The notes under the pieces: generated by a model
Told to the model about the DNA's origin: nothing
Database searches by the model: none
Seen by the model: the letters and a program-made list of their open reading frames with translations, nothing else
Position numbers and translations under genes: made by a program
Assembly (NCBI GenBank): GCA_963741925.1
Contig: CAVUJU010000005.1
Coordinates: 2,625,447 to 2,689,446 of the forward strand
DNA length: 64,000 nucleotides
Direction: 5' to 3'
DNA from: an uncultured Acidobacteriota bacterium
GTDB lineage: Bacteria > Acidobacteriota > Thermoanaerobaculia > Multivoradales > DATKCC01
Shown here: positions 7,721 through 41,439 of the stretch, piece after piece
How the letters are laid out: each line of letters begins with the position of its first letter
Numbering within the stretch: the stretch's first letter is position 1

Positions 7721-7750
7721 GAGCTCTTCCGAAGGGAGGCGAGACCCGCG

Positions 7751-8305
7751 ATGAACATCGAGTACGTCGGAAGGAACTTCGAGGTCGACGACAACGTCCG
7801 GAAGTACACCGAAGGCAAGCTCGCCAAGAAGGTCACCAAGTTCGTGGGCGACCCGGTCGAGATCCGCGTCACCCTCGAGACCGAGAAGCACCGCAACATC
7901 GCCGACCTCCACATCGCCCACAAGCACGGCATCCTCCAGGCGACCGAGGAGACCGGGGACATGTACGAGGCCATCAACATGGCCGTCGACAAGGTGGAGA
8001 AGCAGGCCCGGCGCTCGAAGAAGAAGTTCATCGACAAGCGTCGGCGCGCCGACCGCGTGACGACCAACGGCCAGCGCTGGCCCGTCGACGTCCTCGCCCG
8101 CGAGAGCCTCGGCGGCGAGACGGGCCCGACGATCATCAAGTCCAGTCATCTCCCGATCAAGCCCATGTCCATCGAGGAGGCCGCCCTCTGGCTCGAGAAC
8201 GGCAAGAACGAGTTCGTCGTCTTCCGGGACTCCACCTCGAACCGGGTCAACGTCCTCTACAAGCGCAAGGACGACAACTACGGCCTGATCGCGCCCGAGC
8301 TCTAG
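7751..8305 (+). CDS. hpf: Ribosome hibernation promoting factor (long form)
   Basis: 184 aa with the N-terminal RaiA/HPF fold (MNIEYVGRNFEVDDNVRKYTEGKL...) plus the C-terminal extension typical of long HPF. Sits in the conserved rpoN-hpf-ptsN context. Confidence 0.9.
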   Translation: MNIEYVGRNFEVDDNVRKYTEGKLAKKVTKFVGDPVEIRVTLETEKHRNIADLHIAHKHGILQATEETGDMYEAINMAVDKVEKQARRSKKKFIDKRRRADRVTTNGQRWPVDVLARESLGGETGPTIIKSSHLPIKPMSIEEAALWLENGKNEFVVFRDSTSNRVNVLYKRKDDNYGLIAPEL

Positions 8306-8394
8306 CGGCGGGTGAGGCCCCCTCGCGGCGCCGGCCCACGGGTCACCGGTTCGCCGACCCGGCCGCGGGGGCGATCTCCAACGGGCGAGCAGCC

Positions 8395-8850
8395 ATGCGA
8401 CTCGACGCTCTGACCGGTCCCGAGCTGATCCTCCCCGGGCTCGAGGCCTCGGTGGGGGAGGAGGTGCTGCGCGCGCTCTCCCGGCACCTCGAGGCGCTGC
8501 GCGTCATCCGCGACGCCCGGGAGCTCTACGACAACCTGCTCGAGCGCGAGGCGCTGGGCTCGACGGGCATCGGCTCCGGCGTCGCCATTCCTCACGGCAG
8601 GCTCGAGGGGCTGTCCCGCGCCGTGCTCGCCATCGGGATCTGCCGCCGGGGGGTCGAGTTCCGGGCCACCGACGCAGAGCCCGTCCGCCTCTTCTTCGTG
8701 GCGGTCTCCCCGAGCGACGCAGTGCCCGCCGTCCACCTCCAGGTGCTGGCGGCGATCTCCAGGTGGATCAGGGCGGATCGCCACGTCGCGCGCCTCCTCG
8801 AGCTCGACGACCCGCAGGCGATCTACCGACTGCTGGAAGAGGCGCCATGA
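8395..8850 (+). CDS. ptsN: PTS IIA-Ntr nitrogen regulatory protein
   Basis: 151 aa starting MRLDALTGPELILPG, with the EIIA-fructose/Ntr-type motif GIGSGVAIPHGRLEG (phosphorylatable His). The ORF-track entry 7126..8850 is an over-extended ORF. Confidence 0.85.
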   Translation: MRLDALTGPELILPGLEASVGEEVLRALSRHLEALRVIRDARELYDNLLEREALGSTGIGSGVAIPHGRLEGLSRAVLAIGICRRGVEFRATDAEPVRLFFVAVSPSDAVPAVHLQVLAAISRWIRADRHVARLLELDDPQAIYRLLEEAP

Positions 8851-15540: not shown

Positions 15541-15605
15541 CCCTCGCAGCGTTGCGCCTCCTCGAGGTAGGCCCTGCTACGCCTGCGTCTGCGCGCCCGG
15601 CGAGG
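15541..15605. repeat. Dispersed ~60-bp intergenic repeat family B (cgacgcaggcgtagcagggcctacstcgaggaggmgcaacgc), reverse orientation
   Basis: Reverse complement matches the copies at 30650-30715 and 42590-42665. Lies between convergent operons. Confidence 0.5.
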
Positions 15606-21385: not shown

Positions 21386-22153
21386 GGCTCCGCCTCAAAC
21401 CGACGAGGCGTCTGAAGCGTCTCCGGCGCCACGGGTCGCCGGTCCCCCGCCCACGCCGACCGATCACGGCTGCGCTCCTCGGAACGGCGACTCCAGACCG
21501 CCAGGTTCATCGGATGCCCCCCGCAACCCCTCGATCCCCTTCCCACCCCACGGGGGGGAAGGGGACGGTTGATCGGATGCCCCCCGCAACCCCTCGATCC
21601 CCTTCCCACCCCACGGGGGGGGAAGGGGACGGTTGATCGGATGCCCCCCGCAACCCCTCGATCCCCTTCCCACCCCACGGGGGGGGAAGGGGACGCCCCC
21701 ACCCTCTCGGTCTGTTGCTCGAGGAACTCGGCTCGTTCGTCACGATTCTGGCCTGATCAGACATCGAGTGAAGCTCCGCCTCAAACCGACGGGGCGTCTT
21801 GAGCGCCTTGGGCTTGCTGAGTCGCAGGTCCCCCGCCCACGCCGACCGTTCACGGCTGCGCTCCTCGGAACGGCGACTCCAGACCGCCAGGTTCATCGGA
21901 TGCCCCCCGCAACCCCTCGATCCCCTTCCCACCCCACGGGGGGGAAGGGGACGGTTGATCGGATGCCCCCCGCATCCCCTCGATCCTCTTCCCACCCCAC
22001 GGGGGGGAAGGGGACGGTTGATCGGATGCCCCCCGCATCCCCTCGATCCCCTTCCCACCCCACGGGGGGGGAAGGGGACGCCCCCTCCCCGTATCGCTGC
22101 GCCGAAAAACTTGGCTCGTTCGTCACGACTCTGGCCTGATCAGACATCGAGTG
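21386..22153 (+). repeat. Two tandem copies (21386-21771; 21772-22153) of a ~385-bp composite repeat element, each containing three tandem ~64-bp hairpin units (ggttgatcggatgccccccgcaacccctcgatccccttcccaccccacgggggggaaggggac)
   Basis: Read directly. 64-bp arrays at ~21503-21697 and ~21890-22085 have no unique spacers. Each unit holds the palindrome ccccttccc/gggaagggg. Flanking conserved arms are gcctcaaaccgacgrggcgtct... and ...ctcggctcgttcgtcacgaytctggcctgatcagacatcgagtga. ORFs here (PPQPLDPLPTPRGGKG...) are repeat-driven, not coding. Confidence 0.8.
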
Positions 22154-22226
22154 ACCCGTCAACCGTCAAGTGACAGGGTACCTGGCGAGAGGGCCCACCA
22201 GGAGACGTCACTTGACGGTTGACGGG
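22154..22226. repeat. Perfect 20-bp inverted repeat (cccgtcaaccgtcaagtgac ... gtcacttgacggttgacggg) with a 33-bp spacer, upstream of parA
   Basis: Read directly. The same element recurs at 30598-30751 with a nested insertion. The arms contain TTGAC motifs. Confidence 0.7.
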
Positions 22227-22368
22227 CCACTAGCTGCGCCTAACTCCCTCAATTCCAGATGGTTACGCATCATGTCGGCGCGCCGACATCGGCGCGCCGA
22301 CGAGGTTCGGCCGCCCCGCCTCGCGTCTTGACCTCCCGGGACCCATCCTGTAGATTCCGGGCCGTCCC

Positions 22369-24908: not shown

Positions 24909-26246
24909 GTGACGGCCAGGACGAGAGACGAGACCCCGGCGCGAGTGGGGCGAGCCCCTAACCCCGGCGGAGAGGTCCGGTCCCGATGGGGCTGGGCCGA
25001 ACCCTCGGTCTGGACGGAGCGCATGCTGCGGGCCCTGGAGACCGGGGTCCGAGGAGGGACGTGGTTCAGCCTGATCGACAAGGTCTGCCGGAAGCAGACG
25101 CTTCTGCGCGCGTTCGAGAGAGTCGAGCGCAACGGGGGCGCCGCGGGGGTAGATCACGTCACCGTGGATCACTACGGATCGCGCCTGGAGGAAGAGGTGG
25201 AGACGCTGTCGGCGTCCTTGCGGGACGGTAGCTACCGCCCGCAGGCGGTGCGTCGGCGGTGGATCCCCAAGCCGGGAAGCCGCGAGAAGCGGCCCCTGGG
25301 GATTCCGACGGTGCGCGATCGGGTGGTGCAGGGCGCGTTGCGCTTGGTCCTGGAGCCGATCTTCGAGCGGGATTTCGCCGAGCACAGCTACGGCTTCCGC
25401 CCGGGGCGCGGGTGCCGGGAAGCGCTGGAGCGGGTCGAGGAGCTCCTCGACTCGGGCCACACCTGGGTGGTGGACGCCGACCTGCGCCGGTACTTCGACA
25501 CGATCGATCCGGAGCGCCTGCTGGCGCGGGTGCGCGAGAAGGTATCGGACGGGCGAGTGCTCGCCCTGGTCGAGTCCTTTCTCGAGCAAGAGGTACTGGA
25601 CGGACTGGAGAGCTGGACGCCCGAGCGGGGAACCCCGCAAGGCGCGGTGATCAGCCCCCTACTGGCCAACATCTACCTCGACCCGCTGGACCATCTTCTG
25701 GCCCGCGAGGGCTTCGAGATGGTGCGCTACGCCGACGACTTCGTGATCCTGTGTCGGAGCGAGACCGAGGCCCGCCGGGCGCTTGCCCTGGTGGAGGCGT
25801 GGACGGCCCAGGAGGGCCTGAGCCTTCACCCGGACAAGACGGCGGTGGTGGATACCACCGAGCGGGGTGGCTTCGACTTCCTGGGGTACCACTTCGAACG
25901 GGGCTACCAATGGCCCCGCGACAAGAGCCTCCGGAAGCTCAAGGACACCCTGCGCCGCAAGACCCGGCGCACCAACGGTCACAGCCTCGATCGGATCACC
26001 TGGGACGTCAGCCGGACGTTGCGTGGTTGGTACGAGTACTACCGCTACAGCCACCCGACGACCTTCCGGCCGCTCGACCGGTGGATCCGCATGCGCCTGC
26101 GCAGCATCTTACGCAAGCGTCGCCGAGGCCGAGGCCGGGGCCGCGGTCGCGACCACCAGCGCTGGCCCAACGCCTTCTTCGCCGAGCATGGGCTGTTCAG
26201 CCTCGAAACCGCCTATGCCTCGGACCCGCAGTCCTCTCGTAGGTGA
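24909..26246 (+). CDS. Group II intron-encoded reverse transcriptase/maturase (no endonuclease domain)
   Basis: 445 aa. RT blocks include RIPKPGSREKRPLGIPTVRDRVVQ, FRPGRG and the YADD motif (MVRYADDFVILC). The X/thumb domain is followed by an Arg-rich tail. No HNH motif. Confidence 0.9.
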   Translation: MTARTRDETPARVGRAPNPGGEVRSRWGWAEPSVWTERMLRALETGVRGGTWFSLIDKVCRKQTLLRAFERVERNGGAAGVDHVTVDHYGSRLEEEVETLSASLRDGSYRPQAVRRRWIPKPGSREKRPLGIPTVRDRVVQGALRLVLEPIFERDFAEHSYGFRPGRGCREALERVEELLDSGHTWVVDADLRRYFDTIDPERLLARVREKVSDGRVLALVESFLEQEVLDGLESWTPERGTPQGAVISPLLANIYLDPLDHLLAREGFEMVRYADDFVILCRSETEARRALALVEAWTAQEGLSLHPDKTAVVDTTERGGFDFLGYHFERGYQWPRDKSLRKLKDTLRRKTRRTNGHSLDRITWDVSRTLRGWYEYYRYSHPTTFRPLDRWIRMRLRSILRKRRRGRGRGRGRDHQRWPNAFFAEHGLFSLETAYASDPQSSRR

Positions 26247-26257
26247 ACCACCAACCG

Positions 26258-26336
26258 GAGAGCCGGATGCGGGAGATCCGCACGTCCGGTTCGGAGGGAG
26301 GGGGGGCAGGGAATCCAACCTGCCCTCCCTACCCCT
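26258..26336 (+). ncRNA. Group II intron catalytic domains V and VI
   Basis: Sequence folds as described above. Located just after the IEP stop. Confidence 0.7.
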
Positions 26337-26549
26337 ATCATGGGTTCGAGGGGTTGGGCGACGGGGGGCGAGGATCTGGGCGGCGCCGGGCACGACCTCC
26401 GCCGAAGTGGGGATTACATGATGTCAAGTTCGCCGCGTGGCAGGGCACGGCCTTCGCGGGGGCCGAGCCGTCTCCGGCGACCGGAACTTGACATAATGTA
26501 TCTTATCGGACGTTATATCGGCGCGCCGGGTCGCGCCGCACGCCGCGCC

Positions 26550-27129: not shown

Positions 27130-29505
27130 GTGCGGCTCCTCGACCGCTATCTCCTGAGCGAGATCTCCGGCCCCCTCGGGCTGGGGTTCCTAGTCTATAC
27201 GTTCATCCTTCTGCTTCAGGCGTTGTTCAAGTCGGCGGAGATGATCATCCGCCGCGGGCTGCCGGTCGCGACCGTCGGCAAGCTGCTCCTGCTCTCCCTG
27301 CCGAACATCGTGGTGTTGACCATCCCGATGTCGCTCCTCTTTGGCGTGCTCATCGCCATCGGCCGCCTGGCCTCGGACAGCGAGCTCGTGGCCATGCGCG
27401 CCACGGGCATCAGCCTGCTGAGCCTCTACCGGCCGATCCTCCTCCTCTCGGCGCTGCTCACCGCGGTCAACACGCTGCTCATGGTCTACGTGCTGCCCTG
27501 GGGCAACCACCAGCTCCAGCTCGAGCGGCTCGAGATCCTGACCCAGAGCATCTCGACCCAGATCGAGCCGCGGGTCTTCTGGGACGAGTGGCAGGATCAG
27601 CTGCTCTACGTGTTCGAGGTCCCGGGCCCGGGCCAGCCCTGGAAGGGCGTGTTTCTCGCCGAGTCGGTCCCCTCGACCCAGGACAACCAGGTGACCGTCG
27701 CCGAGCGCGGGCAGGTCCGGGTCGACGAGAACGGCGAGCGGGTCGTGCTCGAGCTGGGCGATGCCCGGGTGCACCGGGTCGACCTCTCGAAGCCGGACCG
27801 CTACGACATCTCCCGGCACAGCAGCCTCGAGGTGGTGCTCGAAGACCAGTTCGCCAGCGAGCAGCGGGCCAGGATCAGCGCGTCGAAAGGGGTCCGCGAG
27901 CTCGGCCTGGGCGAGCTTCGCCAGTGGATCGCCGACCGAAGCCGGTCGCGCGAGATCCGCCGCCTCGCCCGCGTGGAGATCCACAAGAAGTTCGCGATCC
28001 CGTTCGCCTGCCTGGTGTTCGGGATCTTCGCCCTGCCCCTGGGGTTCAACAACCGGCGCGGCAGCAAGGCCTCGGGCTTCGCCCTGTCCATCCTGGTGAT
28101 CGTCGGCTACTGGGTGCTCCTCGACTCGGGCGAGAAATGGGCCCAGGCCGGCGGCATCCCCCCCTGGCTCGCCATGTGGTTCCCGAACCTGTTCGGGGCC
28201 TCCCTCGGCCTCTTCCTCCTCGGCCGGCGCAACCGGGACAAGAGCCTTCTCCTGACCAAGATCGACCGCTGGGTGCGCCGCGACCTCTGGGCGCGGGTCC
28301 AGTTCCTCCAGCGCCGGCGGCGGCAGCGGCGGGCCGACCGGCGGGCGCGGATGCGCGACCGGCTCCAGCCCCGGAAGGCCCACGTCGTCATCCGGCTCCC
28401 CCGCTTCCAGGTCCTGTTCCCGAACATCATGGACCGCTACGTCCTGCGGGTCTTCTCGGGGGTCTTCTTCCTGGTCCTGCTCTCGGGGGTCTCGCTCTAC
28501 GTCCTCGCCGACCTCACCGGCAAGGCGGACGAGATCTTCAAGAACCGGGTGAGCCACTCGGTGGTGCTCGCCTACTACGGCTACTCGTCGCTCCAGATCT
28601 TCTACGAGATCGCACCGGTGCTCGTGCTGGTGACCACGCTCATCACTTTCAGCCTGCTCTCGAAGTCCAACGAGGTCACGGCGTTGAAGGCCCTCGGCGT
28701 GAGCCTCTACCGGCTGGCCGTCCCGGCCATGGTGGCGGCGCTCGGGATCACCCTCTTCGCGGTCTTCCTCCAGTCGGAGGTCCTGCCCGCCTCGAACCAG
28801 CGCGTCGCCCAGCTCGACGACCAGATCCACGGCCGCGAGACCGCCCGGACCTACCGGCGCGCGGACCGGCAGTGGCTTTTCGGGCACGACCACTACATCT
28901 ACAACTACCTCCACTACGACCCCGCGACCAAGAGCCTGCAGCGGCTCCAGGTCTTCGAGTTCGACGCCCGGCACCAGCTCACCCGGCGCCTGGTGGCCGA
29001 CCGGGCGGTGTACGACGGCAACGGGTGGTGGCGCTTCGAGAACGGCTGGTTCCGGCGCTTCGACGGCGTCGAGGTGACCGAGTACGAGCGCTTCCCCGGG
29101 GAGGTCCTGGCCCAGTTCCCGGAAAAGCCCGACTACTTCGACTCGGAGGTCCGGCCCCCCGAACAGATGGGCTACGTCGAGCTCCGGCGGTATATCCAGG
29201 AGCTCGAGGGGAGCGGCCAGGCGGTGCCCGAGCTCCGGGTGGAGCTGCAGAACAAGGTCGCCTACCCCACCATCTCCCTGGTCATGGCCCTGGTCGCCCT
29301 GCCCTTCGCCTTCCGTCTCGGCCGGCAGGGCGCTCTCTACGGGGTGGGCCTGTCGCTGGTGCTGGGAATGATCTTCCTGGCGGTCTTCGCCTTCTTCAAG
29401 ACCATGGGCGAGGCCGGCCTGCTGCCTCCGGCGGTCGCCGTGTGGAGCCCGAACCTGGTGGCCGCGATGGTCTCGGCGTACCTGTTCCTGGGCGTGCGCA
29501 CCTGA
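27130..29505 (+). CDS. Fused LptF/LptG (YjgP/YjgQ family) lipopolysaccharide export permease
   Basis: 791 aa with two successive YjgP/YjgQ-type modules. Each has 6 TM segments and a periplasmic beta-jellyroll. They are joined by an Arg-rich linker (RRRRQRRADRRARMRDR). Confidence 0.8.
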   Translation: MRLLDRYLLSEISGPLGLGFLVYTFILLLQALFKSAEMIIRRGLPVATVGKLLLLSLPNIVVLTIPMSLLFGVLIAIGRLASDSELVAMRATGISLLSLYRPILLLSALLTAVNTLLMVYVLPWGNHQLQLERLEILTQSISTQIEPRVFWDEWQDQLLYVFEVPGPGQPWKGVFLAESVPSTQDNQVTVAERGQVRVDENGERVVLELGDARVHRVDLSKPDRYDISRHSSLEVVLEDQFASEQRARISASKGVRELGLGELRQWIADRSRSREIRRLARVEIHKKFAIPFACLVFGIFALPLGFNNRRGSKASGFALSILVIVGYWVLLDSGEKWAQAGGIPPWLAMWFPNLFGASLGLFLLGRRNRDKSLLLTKIDRWVRRDLWARVQFLQRRRRQRRADRRARMRDRLQPRKAHVVIRLPRFQVLFPNIMDRYVLRVFSGVFFLVLLSGVSLYVLADLTGKADEIFKNRVSHSVVLAYYGYSSLQIFYEIAPVLVLVTTLITFSLLSKSNEVTALKALGVSLYRLAVPAMVAALGITLFAVFLQSEVLPASNQRVAQLDDQIHGRETARTYRRADRQWLFGHDHYIYNYLHYDPATKSLQRLQVFEFDARHQLTRRLVADRAVYDGNGWWRFENGWFRRFDGVEVTEYERFPGEVLAQFPEKPDYFDSEVRPPEQMGYVELRRYIQELEGSGQAVPELRVELQNKVAYPTISLVMALVALPFAFRLGRQGALYGVGLSLVLGMIFLAVFAFFKTMGEAGLLPPAVAVWSPNLVAAMVSAYLFLGVRT

Positions 29506-30024
29506 GCGAGCTCGGCCGCAGCACGCAAATCGTGCACGCCGAACGGCGAAACTTGCAAGCGAAAGCTACCGGGCGGGGACGTCAAGCTCCCCCGCGAGGA
29601 CGGGAGGTGGAGCGAGGAACCGGTCTCTTCGGGGTGGAGCTTCGGGAGGATGTCAGGCTCGGGGAGACGCGCCGCGAAGGGCGGTCTCCCCGAGCTTCCG
29701 GTCCGTCAGGACGCGGAGGAGATTCGGAGTGGCACGCAGTGAAGGAAAGACATCGAGGGCCGTCCGGTACGGAGGTGCGTAGTCTCCGGCCGGGGCGAGA
29801 TCAATGCATTTCGGCAGGTTGGCGTCATGGCGGGAAGAAGTGTCAGTAGGGCTCCGAATCTCACTGACCGAGGTGTGCAGAAGGCGAAGCGCTTGACGCT
29901 TTGCTCAGATCGTTTCGAGATGTGTTCCTCGTAGCTCTGGACATCGCGGCGCGCGCTCCCTGTTCACCTGGAGAGTTAGATATGCAAGCATGAGGCCAAT
30001 CCCTCCGACGGCCTCCCCTTCCCC

Positions 30025-30558
30025 TCACCGGCCGTCGTGCCCGAGCTCACGCCCCAGGGCCGCCAGGCAGCGGCCGAGGATCTTGCGGATGCTCGCGGGC
30101 TGGTAGGCCGTCCGCGAGGCGATCTCCGCCGGCTTCATCCCGAGCCCGAAGCGCAGCCGCAGCACCGCGCGGTGCCGCTCCGGGAGACGGGCGAGCGCCG
30201 CGGCGAGGTCGCGCCGGAGGTCCCCCAGCTCCTGGCCCGGGGGGACCGGCTCGGCGAGGCGATCGAGGAGGTCGTCGTCGATCGAGTCCCACGGTCGGCT
30301 ACGCCGCCGCCGCCAGTAGCGCAGGCTCTGGTTGCGCAGGGTCCCCAGGATCCAGGCCTCGGGGTGCCGGACCTCCCGGTACTTCGTGAAGAGCACGAGC
30401 AGGGCCTGCTGCAGGAGGTCGTCGCCGTCCTGCGGCGGAATCCGGTACCTGTGGAGGAGGGCGACGGCTCGGGGCCGGATGCGCTCCACGACGCCCTGGA
30501 AGCACACCTCGAGCTCCCTGCGATCGTCATCTTCCGCGAGGACTCGGGCCGCACTCAC
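30025..30558 (-). CDS. ECF-type RNA polymerase sigma factor (paralogue 1 of 3)
   Basis: 177 aa. Sigma-70 region 2 (IPPQDGDDLLQQALLVLFTKY...DPEAWILGTLRNQ) and region 4 (ERHRAVLRLRFGLGMKPAEIA). Confidence 0.8.
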   Translation of the reverse strand: MSAARVLAEDDDRRELEVCFQGVVERIRPRAVALLHRYRIPPQDGDDLLQQALLVLFTKYREVRHPEAWILGTLRNQSLRYWRRRRSRPWDSIDDDLLDRLAEPVPPGQELGDLRRDLAAALARLPERHRAVLRLRFGLGMKPAEIASRTAYQPASIRKILGRCLAALGRELGHDGR

Positions 30559-30597
30559 GCAATCACGATAGCAGCCGGTGCTCCGGCGTGTCTACTG

Positions 30598-30751
30598 ACC
30601 AGTCAACCGTCAAGTGACAGGGTATCTGGCGAGGATTTCTCGTCGCTGGCCAGGCGCTCCGACGCAGGCGTAGCGGTGCCTACGTCGAGGAGGAGCAACG
30701 CCGCAAGCGGCGAGAGGGACCGCCAGGGCACGTCACTTGACGGTTGACGGG
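30598..30751. repeat. Second copy of the 20-bp-arm inverted repeat element, carrying a nested ~90-bp insertion of repeat family B; lies upstream of ECF sigma paralogue 1
   Basis: Arms gaccagtcaaccgtcaagtgac / gtcacttgacggttgacggg. The inner segment gcgctccgacgcaggcgtagcggtgcctacgtcgaggaggagcaacgcc matches the copies at 15541-15605 and 42590-42665. Confidence 0.7.
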
Positions 30752-30801
30752 TCACTACTCTGATGACGTAATTTATTCTCTGAATCGGGAGAAAGGTCGC
30801 C

Positions 30802-31341
30802 CTACAGCTCGGCGAGAAAGTCCTCTCGCCGGAGCCCCGCCGCCTTGAGCTCGCGCCCGAGGAGCACCAGGCTTTGCGTCGTCAGCTTGCGCATGCCCGT
30901 CGACTCGTAGCCGAGCTCCTCCGCGATCTCCGAGCTCTTGTGGCCGAGGCCGTAGCGCAGGCGCAGCAGGTCCTGGCACCGGCGGGGCAGCCTCGAGATG
31001 GCGGCGTTCAGGTCGTGACGCAGGTCGGCCTGCTCCTGGGGAGGCGACTGCGGCCCGGCGAGCACGTCGAGGATGGCGTCGTCGACCGCCTCGTAGATCG
31101 CCTCGTCCTGCTGGCGCCAGTAGAGCTTGCACCGGTTGCGCAGGGTCGAGAACAACCAGGCCTCCGGGTCGCGCACGCTCTCCCACTTGAAGACCAGCGC
31201 CACCAGAGTCTCCTGGAGGAGGTCCTCGGCATCCTCGCGCGGGATCTGGAAGCGCGCGAGCTCGCGCAGCAGGCGTGGATGTTGCTGGAGGAGGAAGGCG
31301 TCGGCCGGCCGCTCGGCCGCTTTCGGATGGAGGCGGTTCAT
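30802..31341 (-). CDS. ECF-type RNA polymerase sigma factor (paralogue 2 of 3)
   Basis: Start chosen at MNRLHP (AAGG RBS 6 nt upstream). Carries IPREDAEDLLQETLVALVFKW...DPEAWLFSTLRNRC...CQDLLRLRYGLGHKSSEIA. Confidence 0.75.
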   Translation of the reverse strand: MNRLHPKAAERPADAFLLQQHPRLLRELARFQIPREDAEDLLQETLVALVFKWESVRDPEAWLFSTLRNRCKLYWRQQDEAIYEAVDDAILDVLAGPQSPPQEQADLRHDLNAAISRLPRRCQDLLRLRYGLGHKSSEIAEELGYESTGMRKLTTQSLVLLGRELKAAGLRREDFLAEL

Positions 31342-31527
31342 CCTTTCGCCCCGCTGGAGAGCAAGCTCCATCCTACCACCTCGAGCGCGTCCGGGTGTCT
31401 CGAACCCGGGGTCGGGGGTCGGTCCGGGCGGCATCTCGCCGCTCGGCGCATCAGCGCCGGCGCCCAGGGGCCGTACGACCTCCGCCTCGATGGAACCGCG
31501 GAGTCGCACAGGATCGCCGCTTCCGCC

Positions 31528-32070
31528 TCAGGTCTCCTCCGGCTCCTTGAAGAAGCCGGAGGCGGTGAGCTGCCGCGTCAAGGCGGCGAGACACCGACTG
31601 GTGATCTTGCGGATGCTCGACGCCTGGTAGCCCATCCGCTCGGCGACCTCGGCAGGCTTGTAGCCGAGGCCGTAGCGCAAGCGCAGGAGAGAGCGGCAAC
31701 GCTCCGGGAGCTCGGCGATCGCCCGCTCCAGGTCGGCCTGGACATCCTGCTGCACCTGGGGCGTGCCACCCGGCTTGGCGACGAGCTCCAGGATGGTGGT
31801 GTCGACCGAGTCGTAGAGGCGCGAGCGCTTGCTGCGCCAGTACATGAGACACCGGTTGCGCAGGGTGGCCACCAGCCAGGCCTCGGGATCCCGGATCTTC
31901 TTGCGCTTGTAGATCAGGGTGAGGACCGCCTCCTGGAGGACGTCCTCCGAGTCTTCCGGCGGGATTTGGTAGCGGTAGAGAATCCGCTCCAACCGACGCT
32001 GGAGGGTGCCGAGCAGCTCTTCGAGCGACCAGTCGCTCTGTGTGTCGAGGTTCTGCTGCGTTGGATTCAT
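31528..32070 (-). CDS. ECF-type RNA polymerase sigma factor (paralogue 3 of 3)
   Basis: 180 aa. IPPEDSEDVLQEAVLTLIYKR...DPEAWLVATLRNRC...CRSLLRLRYGLGYKPAEVA. Confidence 0.8.
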   Translation of the reverse strand: MNPTQQNLDTQSDWSLEELLGTLQRRLERILYRYQIPPEDSEDVLQEAVLTLIYKRKKIRDPEAWLVATLRNRCLMYWRSKRSRLYDSVDTTILELVAKPGGTPQVQQDVQADLERAIAELPERCRSLLRLRYGLGYKPAEVAERMGYQASSIRKITSRCLAALTRQLTASGFFKEPEET

Positions 32071-32111
32071 CGTGCGTCTCGATTCACCATAGCACTGCGT
32101 GTTGTCCGTGT

Positions 32112-33677
32112 CTACTCATTCCCGGTCATTCCCGGCGGCTCCGGAAGCAGCGGCTGCCCCGCCGAATGCCGACACGGGGCCGCCGACCCGGTCCAACTCG
32201 AGCTCGCGTCCGTCGGGGAGGTAGAAGGTGCCCGAGAGATAGACCGCGGGGCTCTCGCTCTGCGGCCTGAGCTCCACCTCCCCACCGCCGATGAGCTCTC
32301 CGCCTTCGACCATCGGCGTGTAGAGCCGGACCTCGTCCGGCTGGCGCCAACCCAGGCCCGCCCGAACCTCCTGACCGTCGCGCCACAGAGAGTAGCGGGA
32401 GAACCCGCCCGGCTCGACACGGTCGAAGTACCCGCCCTTCGCGCGCAGCCGCAGGAAGTTCCCGTCGGTCCCCGCGATGTCGGTACTCTGTTGGTTCGAG
32501 GCCTCAGCTCGAAGCCCAGGATGACCCGGTCGCTCTGCCGGGACTTTACCACGAGGCGGCCGGCGAGCGCGGGCGACGGCGGCGAGTCGCCCAGGACTGC
32601 GGCCAGCTCGCCGGCCGCGAGCGACAGCGCCTCCTCGGGCGCCGCCAGGCGGTAGAACAGGAGGCCGAGGTAGTGGCTCGCGGCCGCGTCCCGGATCCGC
32701 TCGACGATCTGGTGGACCACGCCCGGGGCGGTCTGCACCACCCGGACCGCCTCGCCGGGGGCGAGCCGCCAGCCGCCCGCCCGGGAGGCCCTCTGCGCCT
32801 GGAAGGTGTGGACCACCCGGCCGACGCCGGCGAACGGGTCGCCGATGGCGAGCCGCAGGCCGGGGTCGGTGACCAGCGGCTTGAGCCGCGCCCGCGTGGT
32901 CGTCTCCCGTGGCTCGGCGGCGGCGGACAGGTGGGTGGCCGAGCCCAGCACCACCGCCTCCACGAGGAAGTCCCGGCCCAAGGCCTCGAGGCGGTGGACG
33001 TCGGAGACCACCGTCTCCGGGTCCCAGGCCTCCGGAAGGTCGGCGGCTCCCGGCTCCTGGCCGTAGATCTCGGCCGCCAGGAAGTCGACCGCGCGGGCGA
33101 GGTCCGGGGCCTCCGGCGCGCGGAGCCACTGGCGGTGCAGCGTCGCCGAGACCCGGCTCTCGCGGCCGACCGCCGGGCGCAGGGCGGCGAGCAGGCGGGC
33201 GTAGGCCGCGAGGCCGCCGCCGGGCGGCGGCTCGAGGTCGAGGTGGACGCCGAGGGGCAGCAGGCGAGCGGCCTCGGCCGCGGCGAAGAGCCGCCGGAGA
33301 TCCGCCGCCAGGGCCGCGGAGGCGGCCCCCGGGTCGACGCCCTTGGCCGCCGGGCCCGGGCCGCGCAGGACCAGGGTGACCGGGCTGCCCGGAGGAACGG
33401 CGCGGAAGACGTCGGACGCCGCCTCGATCCGCGGGGTGCCTCCCGCCCAGCTCACCCGACCCGTCTCGAGGAAGATCTCCTCCACTCCGGCGGCGGCCAG
33501 GGTGCGAGCGTCCGCGGGCTCGAGGCGCGCCGCCTCCGGCGCCACCCAGACCGCCGAGCCGGCGGGCCGGCTCGGCCGCCCCCGTCCGGGTCCGCCGCAG
33601 GCCGCGGCGAGCCCCGCCGCCAGGAGCAGAAGCGCCAGGGCGGAGCGGGCGGGCGGGGACCTCCGGAAGCCGCTCAC
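32112..33677 (-). CDS. Lipoprotein of unknown function, apparent frameshift near 32478-32486
   Basis: Lipobox LLAAGLAAAC. The body reads cleanly in one frame to ...RVILGFELR. The C-terminus (...ASNQQSTDIAGTDGNFLRLRAKGGYFDRVEPGG...SGAAGNDRE) is in the frame of ORF 32116..33129. The junction is in an agg/cc run. Confidence 0.55.
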   Translation of the reverse strand: MSGFRRSPPARSALALLLLAAGLAAACGGPGRGRPSRPAGSAVWVAPEAARLEPADARTLAAAGVEEIFLETGRVSWAGGTPRIEAASDVFRAVPPGSPVTLVLRGPGPAAKGVDPGAASAALAADLRRLFAAAEAARLLPLGVHLDLEPPPGGGLAAYARLLAALRPAVGRESRVSATLHRQWLRAPEAPDLARAVDFLAAEIYGQEPGAADLPEAWDPETVVSDVHRLEALGRDFLVEAVVLGSATHLSAAAEPRETTTRARLKPLVTDPGLRLAIGDPFAGVGRVVHTFQAQRASRAGGWRLAPGEAVRVVQTAPGVVHQIVERIRDAAASHYLGLLFYRLAAPEEALSLAAGELAAVLGDSPPSPALAGRLVVKSRQSDRVILGFELRPRTNRVPTSRGPTGTSCGCARRAGTSTVSSRAGSPATLCGATVRRFGRAWVGASRTRSGSTRRWSKAESSSAVGRWSSGRRARAPRSISRAPSTSPTDASSSWTGSAAPCRHSAGQPLLPEPPGMTGNE

Positions 33678-36600
33678 ACCGGGATTCTAATGGTCACCGC
33701 GAGGCCGCCGCCAGGACGGTTGCGGGCGGCGATGGTCCCGCCGTGCTCCTCGGCGATGCGCCGGGCGATGGGCAGGCCGAGCCCGGTCCCGGTGTCGTAG
33801 GTCGAGAAGTAGGGGTCGAAGATCCTGCCCAGGAGGTCGGGCTCGACCCCCGGGCCCGCGTCGAGCACCGCCACGCTCGCCGTGCCGTCGGCGCTCGCCA
33901 CCCGCACGGCGACCCGCCCCTTGCCGGCGTTGGCCCGGACCGCGTTCTCCACCAGGTTGCGCACCGCGCGGCCGAGAAGCCGGGCGTCGAAGCGGGCGGG
34001 AACCTCCGGCTCGGCCGCCTCCAGGCTCACCTCGGCCCCCACCGCGCCCGAGCTGCGGTACGCCTCCACCAGGTGCTCCATCGCCGCCACCAGGTCCCCG
34101 GGCTGGAGGTCGATCTTGGGGATCGAGCTGAAGGTCGAGAACTCCGAGGCGATCTGGCGCAGCTCCTCGACCTGGCGCAGGATGTTCGTGGTGCAACGCT
34201 CGAAGACCTCGTCGAAGCCCTCGCCGTGGTTGCGATGGACCTCGCGCATGTGCTCGGTCGACAGGCGCAGAGGGGTGAGCGGGTTCTTGATCTCGTGGGC
34301 GATGATCCGCGCCATCTCGGCCCAGGCCTGCAGCCGCTGGCCGCGCAGGACCTCCGTGGCGTCCTCTACCACCAGCAGGGCCGTCGGCTCGCCCTCGCCG
34401 GGGACCGGCACCCAGACCAGGCTCCACTCCCGCTCCTCGCCGCCGTCCTGCGGCGCCAAGCGCACCGTGGTCCGGCGGATCCGGTGGCCGGCCTCGGCCA
34501 GGAAGCCGGCGACCGGCGCCAGGCGCTCGGAGCCCGCGAGCGCGTCGTCGACCCGCTCCCCCACCCCGACCCCGAGGAGCTCGCGGGCCACCCGGTTGTG
34601 CATCAGGACGCGCCGTTGCCGGTCGAGGGAGATCACCCCGGAGGTGATGTTTTCGACCATCCGCTCGACCACCTGCTTCTCGCGCACCAGGCGTGAGCGG
34701 CTCTCGGCGATCCGCCCGGCCATCTCGTCCACCGCCTCGACCAGGGCCGCGAGCTCGAGCTCGGACGGGGCGAGCTCGAGGGAGGTGGCGCCCGAGGCGA
34801 TCCGCCGGGTCCCCTCCACCAGCTCCTCGATCGGCCGGCTGAAGCGGCGGGCGAGGACCACGCCGACCGCGATCAGCAGCCCGAAGAGGGCCGCCGAGGC
34901 CAGGATCACGCGCCGCCTCAGGGAGGCGAGCTCGTGGGCCACCTCCTCCTGCTGGGCGAGGAGCGGCATCGAGAGGAAGAGCCGCTCGGTGTCGGCCGGC
35001 GCCCCGGGGATGCGCAGCGGCGCGTAGAGCTCCAGGTAGTCCACGTCGCGCGCCACGTTGGTTCGCGAGCCGCCGCCGTAGCCGAGCAGCGTGAGGCGGG
35101 AGTAGATCTCCCCCGGGATGCGCTCGGGCAGGAGCCCGGCGGCGAAGAGCTCGGGCTTGCTCGAGGCCCAGATCGAGCTCCCCCAGTAGAGGTTCACCTC
35201 GTGGTGGACCACCCGGGAGACCCACATCAGGAGCTGGTCGTCGACCAGGGTGGTGAAGTCGAACCCCGGCTCGAGGGTCGCCACGTAGTCCCCGATCACC
35301 CGCTGGGTCGAGGCGAGCGCCGCCTCGCCCGCCGAGCGCTGCTCCCGGTTCAGCCGCTCCTCGGCGTCGGACAGGATCACCAGGTTGAGGAGCAGGAGGG
35401 GAACGAGGAGGAGCCCGGTGACGACGATGACCAGCCGCTTCGAGTACGAGCGCAACGTGCGCCGGGCGGCGTCCCGGAACGCCGGCCGGGGCAGGGCGAA
35501 GAGCAGGAGCAGCCCGGCCGCCGCCAGCAGCGCCGCGAGGTTGCCCACGGCGTGGCTGCCCACCCGTTCCAGGGCCTGAACCGGCAGCAGGAGCGGCAGG
35601 TAGACGACCTCGATGCCGTCGGGTCCGTGGTGGGCCCAGGCCCACGCCGAGCCGACCGGCGTCTCGACCCGGGCGCGGCCACCGTGGCCGGCGGCGAGGC
35701 CGGCGAGCCCGGTGGGAAGGGGCGGCCCTTCCGGCCATGGCGAGACGAGCGCCCTCCCCTGCTCCGTGTAGAGGCCGTACGCCGCCACCTCCGGTAGCCC
35801 CTGGATCCGGCGGTCCGCCACCGAGCGCCCGCGCAGCAGCCCGAGCTCGATGGCGTCGAACGAGGCCCGGCGCCCCAGATCGAACCCCGGACGCGGCAGG
35901 AGCCAGTAGCGCGCGACCGCCCACGGCCGGCCGGCGTAGGAGAGCACCGCGTGGCCCGAGATCAGGGTGTCCTCCCAGACCGGCAGACGGAGGTCTTCCC
36001 AGCGGCCGAGGGCTGGCGGCGAGGACTCGGAGCCGGTCACCAGGGGGCCGAACGAGAAGGTCGACGAGCTTCCCGGAGAAGGGCTCCACCACCAGGGCGG
36101 AGAGGGTGTTGGGCTGGGCCAGGGGCGAGCGCCGCCAGAGGGCGAACGCCAGGTCCTCCCGTCCGAGCCCGTTCGGATTCCGGGGTACCAGGGTCGCGAG
36201 ATCGAGGTCCTGGAAGTGCGCCTCCAGCTCGCTCCCGACCCGCGCGCGCGCGGCCGGCGGCGGAGGCGCCAGCTCGCTCTGGCAGGTCGCGCCGAGCTCC
36301 TGCTTGAGCTCGGCGCGGTACGCCGTCTCCCAGGCCCCCGCTGCGAGGAGCGCGGCGAGCAGGAGGGCGACCGCGCCCGGCAACGGGTGGCGCAGGCGCC
36401 GGTCGCTCACCCAGCGCGCCGCCGCCGCGCCGCCCACCGCCAGGAGCCCGAGGCCGGCCGGGACCAGGTCGTGGACGGCGCCCGCCGCCACCAGGCACCC
36501 GACGGCAGCCCACGCCCACGCGTCGGTCGCCGGCCGGCGGGGCGCGCCCGCCTCGCGCAGGCGGCGGCCGGCGGTCCGCCCGGCGAGGAGCAGCAAGGCC

Positions 36601-37877
36601 AGGGCGAGGGCCGCGAAGGCGGCCCGCAGGGTCATCGCTCCCGGGCCCAGCCACAGCGAGGCCGCGAGGTCGAGGCTCGGAGTGGAGGCTCCCGCCTCAC
36701 CCGGCACCGGCAGGCCGAGACCGAAGCCGTGGATGGTGAGCCAGGCGGCCGCCGCCACCAGCAGGGCCGCCGGAGCTCCCAGCGCCGCCGCGATCCAGCC
36801 CCGGCGGCCGGCGGGCTCCAGGGCCGCCGCCGCCGCGGCCAGGACGATCCCCGCCGCCAGGGCTCCGGCGGCAAACGGAGTCGCCCCGCTCGCGAGGGCC
36901 GCCGCCCCCGCCGCCGCCGCGCCCAGCAGGCCGATCGCCGCCCCGGCCTGCCGGCCCGCCAGCTCCGCCGGACGAGTGCCGGGCAGGGCCAGGCGCAGCC
37001 CCCGGATCACGGTCACGGCCACGAGCAGCAGCGCGAGGCAGCCCCACGCGACCCGGCGCGGCCACCGGCGGACCGGGCCCGGCACCCCGGGCGGATCGGC
37101 GCTCGGCCGGAGCACCACCAGCGACGGCAGCCCCGGAACCTCGACGGCGACCGCCCCGGGGGCGCTGGCCACGCCGGCCGGTGCCAGCGACCATCGGACG
37201 CCGTAGCGCCCCGGCGCCAGGGCCAGGCCGGCCGGCGCCTCGAACGGCCAGCGATCGGTGGCGTAGCTGCGGCCCGCGACCAGCCGCCAGGGACGGCGGG
37301 CGTCGTCGAGCGGCTGGATCGCCACCAGGGTCACCGCCCCGAAGCTGGCGTAGAAGTCCCGGCCGGAGCGGGCGAGCTCCGAGGGCTCGGGCTCGTTGAG
37401 CAGGCCCTCGCCGGCCCAGGCGACGGCCTCGCCGTCGGGGTCGACCAGCAGCAGCGTGGGCCGGGACGAGGCCCCCTCGCGCGCCTGTCCCACGATCTCG
37501 GCGAGGCGCCGGAAGGCTTCGAGGCGGTAGGCGTCGTCGTTCGAGGGCGCCGGAAGAGCCGCCGCCGCCTGCTTCGCCTCGGCCGTCAGGCCCTGCCAGA
37601 GGGCGGCGTAGCGGGTGGCCACCTCCGGCGGCAGGTCGGTGGCCGCCGGCAGGACGTCCAGGCGGTCGGCGGCCCAGGGCAGGACGAGGGCGCCGGCGGC
37701 GAGGACGAGCAGGGCGGTGGCGAGCCAGCGCCCCCGGCGCACCGCGGAGAGCGCCAGCCAGCCCGCCCCGAGGACGGCGACGGCGAGGGCGGACCAGGGG
37801 GCCGGCAGCAGCGGCGCAGCGGGAGAGGCCGCCAGGAGGACCGTCCCGATCCAGAGCCGCTGGTCAGTCCAGCGCAT
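33674..37877 (-). CDS. NtrY-like sensor histidine kinase with ~600-aa N-terminal multi-TM/sensor extension (single gene split by a homopolymer frameshift at ~36043)
   Basis: N-terminal part 37877-36045 (MRWTDQRLWIG...) has many Ala/Leu-rich TM segments. The C-terminal part (ORF 33674..36040) has TM, HAMP, PAS-like, HisKA (IAHEIKNPLTPLRLSTEHM) and HATPase_c (GTGLGLPIARRIAEEHGG) domains. The frames differ by one base in a cggCCCCCtgg run. Confidence 0.7.
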
Positions 37878-39612: not shown

Positions 39613-41439
39613 CTACCCGGTGAGCGCGTGCTTCTCCATCTTGGCGGCCAGGGTGTTGCGGGAAATCCCCAGCAGGCGCGCCGCCCGCGACTTGTTGCCG
39701 CCGGTCCGGCGCAGCGCCTCGAGGATCGCCGACTGCTCCGCCCCCGCCACCAGCCGGTCGAGCTCCAGGTCCGATCCCGGCTCGACCCGGGAGGCGGCGT
39801 GGAGCGGGCTCGCCTTGACCGCCTCGGGCAGGAGGTTCAAGTCCACCGGCCGGCCGTGCGGGCAGAGATAGACCATCTGGCGCGCGATGTTCTCCAGCTC
39901 GGCCATGTTGCCGGGGTAGTCGTAGGCGAGCAGCGCGGTCATCGCCTTGGTGGTGATGCCCGCCACCCGCTTGCCGGTCTCGTGGCAGAACCGGTTGATG
40001 TACGACTGGACGAGCAGCGGCAGGTCCGCCTTCCTCTGGCGCAGGGGCGGCACGTCGATGACGAAGCGCGAGAGGCGGTAGGCCAGATCGACCCGGAACT
40101 CGTCCCGGGCGACCGCCGGCTCGAGCGGCCGGTGAGAGGCGGCGACCAGGCGCACGTCGACCCGCGTCACCTCGCGGCTGCCCGCCGGCTCGACCTCGCC
40201 GGAGCGCAGGAAGCGGACGAGGCGCGCCTGGAGCTCCAGGGGCAGCCGGTCGACCTCGTCGAGGAACAGGGTGCCGCCGCCGGCGAGGAGGAGCTTGCCC
40301 TCGCGCTTGACCGGCCCGCCCTTGGTCGCGACCTCCGAGCCGAACAGGTCGGCCTCGACCTGGGTCGCGTTCGCTCCCGAGCCGAGGGCGGTGATGAACG
40401 GGCCGTTGCGCCCCGGGCTCGAGAGGTGGATCGAGCGGGCGAGGAGCTCGCGCCCGACGCCCGGTTCGCCGCGCAGCAAGACGTGGACCCCCGTGTCCAC
40501 CGCCACCCGCAGCCGCGCGAGGACCTCCTTCATCGCCTCCGACTCCCCCACCACCAGCCGCGGGTCGAGGGTGAGGTCCTGGACCCCGCGGTTGCCCGGC
40601 AGGATCGGCTCGTACCGGCCCACGTGGTGGACCAGCCCGAGCGACAGGAGGTCGCCCAGGGCGAAGAGCGCCCCCTCCGGCGACCACGCCGCGGGATCGA
40701 AGCGGCGCAGGACGACGATCATGAAGTACGGGCGGTCGAGAGCGCTGAACACCCGGTAGAAGGTCCAGGCGGGCTCGCCCGCGAGGCGGCCCGCGAAGAA
40801 CAGGCTCCGGGCCTCCCCGTCCCCGGCCTCGTGGCGGCGCTCCTTGATCGCTTCGAGCAGGGCGTCGCCGCTCGCCAGCCAGTCCGGGTCGGTGGCGCTC
40901 GCGAACTTGATCCCGGCGCTTTCGAGGTCGCCGAGGAAGAGGAAGAGCGCCCCGCCGCCGAAATCGGCGAGCACGCGCTCCATCAGGGACTCGAGGGTGG
41001 TCCGGCTCTCCGCGTCGGCGAGGACCCAGTTGCTGATCCGGGCCAGGTGTTCGAGCATCAGCGCCGCCGTCATCACCGGCGGGCCGGCCTCCGAAGCCGC
41101 TGGCTCGGGCTCCTCCGGCGCCGGCCCGGCCTCGGCCTCGGGCGCCATGTCCTCGACCAGCAGGGTGACGCCGCCCATGCGCACCTCGTCCAGGAGCTCG
41201 AGGTCGGCCTCCTTGACCCGCCGTCCGTCCACCAGGAGGCCCCGGCGGCTCCCCAGGTCTTCGACGCGGAGCACCCGGCCGTCGTAGGTCAGGCGGGCGT
41301 GGCGCTGGGCGACGCCGGTGTACGGCAGCACGATGTCGCACTCGGCCTGGCTGCCGATCACCAGCTCGCGCCGGTGGATCGGGAAACGGCGGACCCCGTC
41401 CGGGGCGTAGGCGACGAGGCGGAGCACGGCCGCTAGCAA
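39613..41439 (-). CDS. FHA-domain transcriptional regulator of the sigma-54 activator (bEBP) family with degenerate ATPase motifs
   Basis: N-terminal FHA ([27 protein letters not shown]), central AAA+ sigma-54-interaction-like domain and a C-terminal Fis-type HTH ([18 protein letters not shown]). Walker A is GEPGVGRE (Lys to Arg). The GAFTGA loop is replaced by VATKGG. Confidence 0.8.

Follow-up and report, generated by a model that had tools for sequence, protein, structure and literature searches.

Three tandem genes encoding extracytoplasmic function (ECF)-type sigma factors, which we call sig3, sig2 and sig1, lie at positions 30025–32070 of a 64,000-nucleotide stretch of DNA (hereafter, the window) from an uncultured Acidobacteriota bacterium of the class Thermoanaerobaculia. 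We found that two or three such paralogues are the rule at the corresponding locus across the class, that they share a promoter motif nearly exclusive to them, and that in most lineages their array also encodes a protein, A, whose N-terminus resembles that of anti-sigma factors. With slightly better than even confidence in the whole, including the premise that sig1, sig2 and sig3 encode functional ECF-type sigma factors, we read the triplet as an ancient autoregulated sigma array that would be restrained in trans by an unlinked operon, p-A, lying in the same window, and by a paralogue of A elsewhere on the contig.

The sigma factor triplet

All three genes are on the minus strand and follow one another in the direction of transcription as sig3 (31528–32070, 180 amino acids), sig2 (30802–31341, 179 amino acids) and sig1 (30025–30558, 177 amino acids, with a GTG start). 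ECF (group 4) sigma factors contain regions 2 and 4 only, without region 1.1 or 3, and are about 170–200 amino acids long. At 177–180 amino acids, the three products have just this composition: each matched Pfam Sigma70_r2 and Sigma70_r4_2 above threshold, with no further Pfam match. Each also scored 63–77 bits against the NCBIfam superfamily model TIGR02937 (cut-off 42.9). The AlphaFold model of sig3 (pLDDT 82) has two helical domains, and its best Foldseek matches in the PDB were M. tuberculosis SigL and SigH, Bartonella RpoE, and E. coli sigma-E. The paralogues are 42–53% identical to each other and are separated by intergenic spacers of 186 and 243 bp. An earlier note on this DNA had described three same-strand region 2/region 4 paralogues of ~180 amino acids, with spacers of 240 and 190 bp and the signatures IPPED.EDLLQ, DPEAWL..TLRNR and RLRYGLG.KP.EIA; the description is accurate, and the signatures are present in the triplet.

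None of the NCBIfam ECF subfamily or equivalog models reached its cut-off for sig1, sig2 or sig3 (best 67 bits against 141.6). With scores so far under the cut-offs we dropped the naming of an ECF subfamily, and the absence of any curated subfamily model that accepts these proteins agrees with the suggestion in the note that they form an unusual ECF group. In its text, the paper on ECF classification 2.0 assigns no group mainly to Acidobacteria (PMC7826278). The sigma family is uncharacterised, although ECF sigma factors paired with class I-like anti-sigma factors are a known type of system.

The three genes have evolved at different rates. In close relatives sig3 is 79–94% identical and sig2, the fastest-evolving of the three paralogues, 57–78%; against the first sigma factor (S1) of other lineages, sig3 is still ~58% identical. 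The frames of sig1 and sig2 are intact, both products retain all invariant family residues, and both score 230–245 bits on the family profile. For sig2 there is an alternative in-frame ATG at 31371. We favor the ATG at 31341, because the one at 31371 overlaps a -10-like hexamer and because 31341 is also the start in the related locus L013, which has the same N-terminus, M-x-R-L-H-P. The GTG of sig1 lies only 6 nt after its -10-like hexamer, and the sig1 transcript is possibly leaderless. Across the family, three cysteines are conserved at 90% or more (C74, C125 and C160 of sig3, within NRC.MYWR, LP.RC and NRCL); the first two are missing from sig1 and the third from sig2.

A class-wide array beside lptFG

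A scan of one genome per species identified 251 loci with a relative of the sigma family, and of the best 80 of these 251, nearly all were labelled Thermoanaerobaculia, Holophagales or Acidobacteriota. A family profile was built and then run on all open reading frames (ORFs) of 84 related loci (L numbers, below). Nearly every locus with enough flanking sequence carried two or three same-strand sigma paralogues within ~3.5 kb, and the next gene was nearly always a convergent fused lptF/lptG. In the window this gene, encoding a fused LptF/LptG permease (27130–29505, plus strand), likewise converges on the array, and it is a conserved anchor of the locus across the class. With S for a sigma gene and A for the anti-sigma-like gene described below, the commonest layouts were SS (14 loci), SASSAA (13), SASSA (12) and SASA (11).

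In a neighbour-joining tree of 205 sequences, sig3 fell inside an 83-member clade made up almost entirely of first-position genes (S1), of which it appears to be the orthologue, and sig1 fell in a clade of last-position genes (S3). sig2 and its counterparts from close relatives formed a fast-evolving clade. Because tree and synteny agree, we regard the triplet as an old, class-wide array rather than a recent expansion; it appears to be the local copy of an ancient three-paralogue array, S1-S2-S3, beside lptFG. The “lineage-specific expansion” proposed in the earlier note does not survive this comparison: two or three paralogues by lptFG are the rule across Thermoanaerobaculia and Holophagales, and both sig3 and sig1 belong to class-wide orthologue groups.

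Genes have also left the array. Five close relatives (L005, L006, L008, L010 and L011) have two sigma genes only, sig1 being absent, and most likely lost the third. Arrays without A are found in the window's own clade (L004–L013) and in L002, L014–L019, L021, L031, L051 and L074; the window's clade appears to have lost A from its array. In the distant array of L002, the second paralogue (6688–7239) has a degenerate region 4 and no Pfam match, scoring 105 bits on the family profile, and a gene for a beta-lactamase-fold protein (7542–8579) occupies the usual place of A.

A promoter motif specific to the sigma genes

The earlier note had proposed looking for -35/-10 motifs repeated upstream of each paralogue, and we found one, of the general form T[AG]GACA-N14-17-TGnTAnnnT, before all three genes, each on the minus strand. 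The sig3 copy (32086–32114) reads TAGACA-N17-(TGC)TATGGT and is found at the same offset in 12 relatives. The sig1 copy (30565–30594) reads TAGACA-N18-(TGC)TATCGT, and this promoter and the start region are conserved in L007 and L013. A weaker copy precedes sig2 (31370–31399), (GA)GACA-N17-TGGTAGGAT, and its -10-like element, TGGTAGCAT, is retained in L004 and L013. In the 64-kb window, a relaxed form of the motif, GACA-N14-17-TGnTAnnnT, had three hits, one per sigma gene, compared with 0.11 expected.

When 29300–32300 was scanned for generic sigma-70 promoters, only two sites emerged where 0.1 would be expected, one immediately ahead of sig3 and one immediately ahead of sig1; each matches sigma-70 at 9 of 12 positions and has TG preceding the -10. 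We first read them as ordinary sigma-70 promoters; this reading was downgraded after the motif had been counted across all loci. Across 1.3 Mb of loci, T[AG]GACA-N14-16-TGnTAnnnT had ~157 hits on the strand of the sigma genes, compared with 5 on the opposite strand. One hundred forty-six of the 157 lay no more than 90 nt upstream of a sigma gene of the family, with first, second and third paralogues represented alike; most of the remaining sigma-strand hits were also sigma-linked, and the other genes of these 1.3 Mb, ~1000 in number, were almost devoid of the motif. In 155 instances the -35 hexamer had G or A as its second base, never the consensus T, and the canonical TTGACA form had no hit on either strand. 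Because the motif is nearly exclusive to the family's own genes and departs constantly from the sigma-70 -35 consensus, we favor autoregulation: the sigma factors likely transcribe their own genes from the family motif (positive autoregulation).

Protein A, an anti-sigma-like partner of the array

Clustering of the neighbouring ORFs revealed a protein of ~450 amino acids, A, which is encoded inside most arrays. Its gene comes directly after a sigma gene in 95 of 206 cases, usually overlapping it by 4 or 8 nt. Because A directly follows sigma with an overlap, the arrangement is the layout expected for a sigma/anti-sigma pair, and this gene coupling suggests that A binds its sigma factors. The sigma family does not appear to be intrinsically free of anti-sigma factors: most lineages encode this zinc anti-sigma (ZAS)-like/tetratricopeptide repeat (TPR) protein inside the array.

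Pfam identified only TPR repeats in A proteins, and zf-HC2 was unmatched on the full-length proteins at E ≤ 0.1. The N-terminal 45 residues follow the consensus HP..aLerF.rG.Ls..esr.vvrHLLtGC..C. When a profile of this segment was compared with the PDB, the five best matches were all anti-sigma factors: DdvA (8rlz_A, E = 1e-3; 8rot_B, E = 0.026), ChrR (2q1z_B and 2z2s_B, E = 0.02) and RslA (3hug_B, E = 0.04). Eight of 18 A N-termini gave weak matches to Pfam zf-HC2 (best E = 8e-4). In class I (ZAS) domains the ligand motif spans helices 2–3 and is accompanied by an upstream ligand; the upstream His is conserved in A, and HMMER introduces a one-residue gap when A is aligned with ChrR and DdvA. 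To judge from its sequence, A is probably a soluble class I anti-sigma factor of a variant zinc type, in which a large TPR portion would serve as the sensor.

ECF sigma genes are typically, though not universally, co-transcribed with a cognate anti-sigma gene; in the window itself, no anti-sigma-like ORF adjoins the sigma genes. When a six-frame translation of the window was searched with a profile built on the family's anti-sigma N-terminus, the only match was 42992–44338, with nothing in or beside the sigma cluster, as the earlier note had held. Within 29300–32200 there was a single H-x3/4-C-x2-C string, antisense to sig3. The note had left room for an anti-sigma factor encoded by a small ORF at the cluster; no small ORF there qualifies. 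A 50-amino acid ORF (30603–30755) is inside a repeat element, a 55-amino acid ORF (29861–30028) spans a sigma-54 promoter, and a 52-amino acid ORF (29706–29864) is in the core of a structured RNA (all described below), and none of the three matched the anti-sigma profile.

The single match corresponds to an unlinked homologue of array A, P0127 (42989–44299, minus strand, 436 amino acids), 11 kb upstream of the cluster, which is a candidate trans-acting regulator. Against a profile of 66 array-linked A proteins, from which the window's own protein had been excluded, it scored 193 bits (E = 4e-58), aligned from profile position 4. It belongs to a family of more than 100 members, and H2, H29, C34 and C37 are near-invariant in 33 aligned homologues. 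A second A paralogue, P0132, 67% identical to P0127, is encoded elsewhere on the same 3.07-Mb contig; exact-sequence database look-ups returned no record for P0132, sig1 or sig2. The earlier note's proposal of regulation in trans has thus gained a candidate regulator and its paralogue, which may act on these sigma factors. The genome of L008 also combines an SS array with an unlinked A, on one contig.

AlphaFold predicts for the window's A three short N-terminal helices followed by a TPR superhelix (pLDDT 93.5, pTM 0.90). Its Foldseek matches were peptide-binding TPR proteins (LGN/Pins) and, among bacterial and phage structures, Rap-pheromone complexes and NprR. TPR folds match one another readily, and because of this we take the structural likeness to Rap and NprR as a weak pointer. 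Three homologues of unlinked A (P0188, P0202 and P0237) carry an XRE-type helix-turn-helix (HTH) domain ahead of the TPR body, which is the domain order of the PlcR/NprR-type peptide-sensing regulators.

A small secreted protein paired with A

Just upstream of A in the window is a gene, p (44443–44742, minus strand), for a 99-amino acid small secreted protein with a signal peptide; the p-A operon spans 42989–44742. It contains a conserved stretch, SFF..W..AAW, and, at the C-terminus, two units of LG.E.DP(D/S)G. A p gene encoding ~100 amino acids likewise precedes unlinked A in L087, L089 and L090. Small secreted proteins of this type are also encoded at the arrays, where the p gene is upstream of S1 or between S2 and S3 and its product carries one, two or three terminal units (for example, AGIQIDGNG, GIDPNG or RIDPDG). 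In a strict scan, p was found on the sigma strand in 26 of 84 loci and on the control strand in 1 of 84; it was present in 25 of the 57 loci with A and in 1 of the 27 without A. No Pfam or NCBIfam family covers p proteins. That p accompanies A in both settings is our strongest reason for assigning the unlinked p-A operon to the array's system.

The array p genes have a motif of their own, TGTCC-N14-17-GCGGNAAC or TGTCC-N14-17-CGCAC, of which the first form had 10 hits on the sigma strand and 0 on the other. As a promoter for the window's p this motif was rejected, both forms being absent from the window. A CGAAAC-N12-GCAC block upstream of the window's p was also set aside; as a pattern it is no rarer than chance, and conservation in four loci is its sole support. 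The leader and upstream region of p-A (44743–44960 on the minus strand in the window; also L087, L089 and L090) conserves CCCCGAAAC-N13-CAC and a block GGCGCCGGCCTGCCGCCGG. Upstream of p-A there is also a pair of direct repeats ~22 bp apart (CGTACGAC…CATACGAC in the window), the sequence of which varies by lineage; it looks like a candidate binding site for a dimeric regulator. A gene for a large RHS/YD-repeat protein is near the p-A operon both in the window (47109–51008, plus strand) and in the distant L087 (253–5385).

Because the p-A pairing is shared, we also considered whether S, A and p could form a peptide-signalling circuit of a previously undescribed kind, in which the TPR part of a soluble anti-sigma factor would sense an exported peptide with repeated units (...IDGNG, IDPNG or DPDG) and the p gene would be under an ECF-type promoter. 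We hold this circuit to be speculative and distinctly unlikely.

Regulatory model and alternatives

Under the model that we favor, sig3, sig2 and sig1 would each transcribe their own genes via the family motif. In most lineages, soluble A encoded in the array and translationally coupled to the sigma genes would hold sigma activity in check. In the window's lineage, with A gone from the array, the sigma factors would be sequestered in trans by the product of p-A at 42989–44742 and by P0132, and a signal acting on the TPR part of A would free them. The identity of the sigma factors, the conservation of the array, the coupling of S and A genes, the anti-sigma-like N-terminus of A, the specificity of the motif and the presence of p-A in the window are observations; the model adds that A would bind these sigma factors and, where unlinked, would act on them, and it goes beyond the observations in assigning a reader to the motif and a signal to A.

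Several points weigh against this model. The motif resembles a sigma-70 promoter with an extended -10. ECF sigma factors do not have region 3, which reads the TG of an extended -10, and because they lack it the housekeeping sigma factor may be what reads the motif. The PDB and Pfam matches of the A N-terminus are weak (PDB E = 1e-3 to 0.04), and the ligand spacing, H-x4-C-x2-C in array-linked and unlinked A alike, is one residue longer than the H-x3-C-x2-C by which the ZAS domain is defined (PMC7406223). Unlinked A is only ~29% identical to array-linked A1, A2 and A3 alike, its orthologues are always unlinked to sigma genes, and it could serve another partner. Finally, the neighbour-joining tree is rough, and three of the five close relatives that keep three sigma genes were examined in full.

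Two of these points open onto different explanations. If the motif were a strong housekeeping (sigma-A) extended -10 promoter, the genes would be constitutive and control would be purely post-translational, through A acting in trans. The sigma-70 scan, which calls the sig3 and sig1 sites, and the want of an extended -10-reading region in ECF sigma factors both fit this explanation, as does the possibility that the more ECF-like TGTCC-N14-17-GCGGNAAC/CGCAC of the p genes is the sigmas' true target; the invariable G or A at the second base of the -35, the complete lack of TTGACA and the near absence of the motif from ~1000 other genes speak against it, and we judge it somewhat unlikely, though a serious rival. 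It is unlikely that p-A has nothing to do with these sigma factors and is a separate peptide-sensing TPR module whose N-terminus is merely anti-sigma-like. Such a module would explain why its orthologues are never beside sigma genes, why it is equally distant from all array-linked A types and why some homologues have an XRE-type HTH in front; it would leave aside the full-length homology, including the N-terminal H/C ligand set, the pairing with p that it shares with the arrays, and its occurrence in a genome whose array lost A, as in L008.

The other two alternatives concern the cluster itself. It may be that no anti-sigma factor is required here and that the upstream kinase and lipoprotein set the sigma level transcriptionally, as CseABC does for Streptomyces SigE (ECF39). 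The order histidine kinase–lipoprotein–sig3–sig2 is kept in the window's clade, with 41 bp between lipoprotein and sig3, and the SigE family model TIGR02983 is the best or near-best subfamily match at 63–67 bits. That score is far under the cut-off of 141.6, though, there is no adjacent response regulator, a frameshift interrupts the kinase in this genome, the rest of the sigma family has anti-sigma partners and does without this kinase, and the sigma genes own a dedicated promoter motif, all of which makes a CseABC-like arrangement improbable. More improbable still is that only sig3 matters, with sig2 and sig1 redundant and drifting to loss after their anti-sigma partners went. The stronger conservation of sig3 than of sig2 (79–94% vs 57–78%), the lack of sig1 in several close relatives and the loss of two family cysteines from sig1 and one from sig2 would all be expected from such drift; the intact frames, retained invariant residues and profile scores of 230–245 bits for sig1 and sig2 would not, nor would the conservation of the sig1 promoter and start region in L007 and L013.

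An inverted-repeat element upstream of sig1

Immediately upstream of the sig1 -35 box, in the second spacer, lies an element at 30593–30757 that resembles a miniature inverted-repeat transposable element (MITE) or repetitive extragenic palindrome (REP). Its 26-nt arms (30593–30618 and 30732–30757) are 92% complementary, and the element family has terminal inverted repeats of 17–26 nt (GTCAACCGTCAAGTGAC) and a hairpin-forming core. Parts of the element recur at 22150–22232, 42613–42664 and 15549–15589, the copy at 22150–22232 being an internally deleted version upstream of parA, and the short-read assembly L001 breaks within the repeat. In L007 the sig1 promoter is TAGACA-N17-TGCTATCGT-gattgc-GTG, with the element absent, as it also is in L013. 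Because L007 keeps the same promoter without it, the element is best seen as a recent insertion and not as a promoter part. We rejected a role as operator or promoter part on the strength of this element-free promoter and of the dispersed copies of the core, and the element appears to be a dispersed, genome-wide MITE/REP-like repeat rather than a regulatory part of the cluster. The mobile-looking inverted repeat that the earlier note placed in the promoter of the first gene is thus real, and is inserted upstream of the sig1 promoter, outside it.

Also upstream of parA (21900–22080) are approximately three tandem copies of a ~61-bp unit (…ccccttcccaccccacgggggggaaggggacggttgatcgg…), and a G/C-rich block similar to this repeat is found near 42800–42900 as well.

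A sigma-54-type promoter and a structured RNA downstream of sig1

The ~520-bp region downstream of sig1 (29505–30025), which had been noted as noncoding and of lower GC, indeed has a GC fraction of 0.61–0.65 compared with ~0.70 and no conserved ORF; it is not empty. A sigma-54-type (-24/-12) promoter, TGGCCTCATGCTTGCA, at 29983–29998 on the minus strand points away from sig1 into this stretch. The exact pattern TGGC-N7-TTGCA occurs once in 64 kb (0.19 expected). From an alignment of the sig-lptFG gap of seven relatives, we delimited a conserved structured RNA core of ~230 nt (29647–29874, minus strand), which nhmmer found in 8 loci, all of the window's clade. In all 8 RNA loci, TGG-N8-YTGCA is located 110–128 nt upstream of the core on the same strand. 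The transcript probably runs from ~29972 to 29645, roughly 320 nt.

RNAalifold predicted a multi-helix structure in which 93.5% of cells are paired. Seventeen pairs change on both sides, compared with 6.6±1.7 in column shuffles (0 of 500) and 2–5 in slid controls, and the window's RNA has a minimum free energy z-score of -4.5. G-U pairs outnumber A-C mismatches 11 to 6, an excess that weakly agrees with the promoter direction. Because relatives such as L005 differ by frameshifting indels at the 52-amino acid ORF, the core is conserved as nucleic acid, not as protein. Rfam searches of 29350–30850 at gathering and permissive thresholds found nothing credible. Our best reading of 29645–29998 is a sigma-54-dependent structured RNA of ~320 nt, whose tie to the sigma factors is one of position only. 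In L012, a copy of the sigma-family motif (2331–2359, TGGACA-N-TGGTACGGT) directly precedes the RNA core, a hint that in some relatives the sigma factors may drive transcription of the RNA.

Neighbouring genes

Upstream of sig3 are a gene for a lipoprotein with a weak DUF3142 match (32112–33677, minus strand), which is syntenic in L004–L013, and a gene for a HAMP-PAS histidine kinase of ~1400 amino acids (33674–37877, minus strand). The kinase gene is frameshifted near 36050–36068 and so is read as two frames in the window; in L004 it is a single gene of 1405 amino acids. The split is either a pseudogene or a sequencing error. Farther upstream, and syntenic with the cluster, is a gene for an FHA/sigma-54 activator/HTH_8 enhancer-binding protein (39613–41439, minus strand), a candidate activator of the sigma-54 promoter. 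In L024–L032, L073 and L077 (cluster c19), an FHA/sigma-54 activator gene is immediately upstream of the first sigma gene, and the association of the enhancer-binding protein with the sigma array may extend beyond the window's clade.

A group II intron (24909–26338, plus strand) lies between parB and a PTPS gene, with Rfam RF00029 at 26258–26338 (57 bits) directly after a 445-amino acid ORF (24909–26246); L005 and L006 do not have it at that position.

Relation to known systems

The closest parallels are the soluble zinc-type systems sigma-E/ChrR of R. sphaeroides, sigma-R/RsrA of S. coelicolor and SigL/RslA of M. tuberculosis. As in those systems, the sigma factor has two domains (sigma-2 and sigma-4), and in most family members the partner gene is immediately downstream and overlaps the sigma gene. 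The N-terminus of A can be aligned to those of ChrR, DdvA and RslA, and the His/Cys ligands are part of the match. In contrast to their H-x3-C-x2-C, A has H-x4-C-x2-C; its sensor is a TPR superhelix of ~380 amino acids, whereas theirs is a cupin domain or nothing; and three sigma and two or three anti-sigma paralogues are interleaved in one array, with the partner unlinked in the window. DdvA of the M. xanthus DdvS/DdvA pair, the best PDB match of the A N-terminus, likewise joins an anti-sigma domain to TPR. DdvA itself spans the membrane, has an extracytoplasmic TPR-CHAT portion and regulates defence islands (PMC11506125). A differs in having no predicted membrane helix, its model being all helical repeats, and no CHAT.

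The likeness to SigE-CseABC (ECF39) consists of a sigma gene beside lipoprotein and histidine kinase genes, no adjacent anti-sigma gene, and TIGR02983 as best subfamily match. With 63–67 bits against 141.6 and no response regulator nearby, the triplet appears to fall outside ECF39.

A second set of parallels concerns the TPR part. In the RRNPP systems (Rap, NprR and PlcR, of Firmicutes and phages), a cytoplasmic TPR protein is encoded beside a secreted small-peptide gene. The p-A pairs of the window, L087, L089 and L090 have the same arrangement, a TPR protein gene beside a gene for a secreted pro-peptide; in addition, Rap-pheromone complexes and NprR are among the structures matched by A in Foldseek, and some p proteins have two or three C-terminal repeats. 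Unlike RRNPP proteins, A would have an anti-sigma domain as its output instead of an HTH or phosphatase, the phylum is Acidobacteriota, and the system is known here from genes and a predicted fold. A TPR module is also tied to ECF sigma control in ECF42, where the sigma factors carry a fused C-terminal TPR domain (PMC7826278). Here, by contrast, the TPR follows an anti-sigma domain in a protein of its own, and the sigma factors, at 177–180 amino acids, have no extension. Literature searches returned nothing relevant on a link between RRNPP and anti-sigma factors or on Thermoanaerobaculia sigma factors.

Significance

Bacteria rely on ECF sigma factors as one of their main means of signal transduction, and Thermoanaerobaculia are a class that is widespread in soils and sediments and known almost only from metagenomes. 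To our knowledge, almost nothing has been reported on ECF sigma factors in this class. The data outline a coherent class-wide module of three sigma paralogues, soluble anti-sigma/TPR paralogues and small secreted peptides. What would be new in it are the interleaved paralogue arrays, a soluble TPR anti-sigma factor with an altered zinc motif, the secreted peptides, and lineages with an unlinked sensor operon. Its clean promoter motif could be used for regulon prediction, and natural variants with unlinked anti-sigma genes would be useful for asking how specificity among paralogues is kept. The structured RNA by the cluster, probably sigma-54-driven, is in its own right a candidate new RNA family.

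If the TPR part of A senses a peptide, it would represent a new type of input for ECF signalling, and the interest of the system would rise considerably. Were the peptide circuit true, cell-cell or autocrine peptides would free ECF sigma factors in Acidobacteria, applying an RRNPP-like logic to sigma factors in a Gram-negative phylum, and the window would hold a split version of the circuit, an unlinked p-A sensor operon and a sigma triplet.

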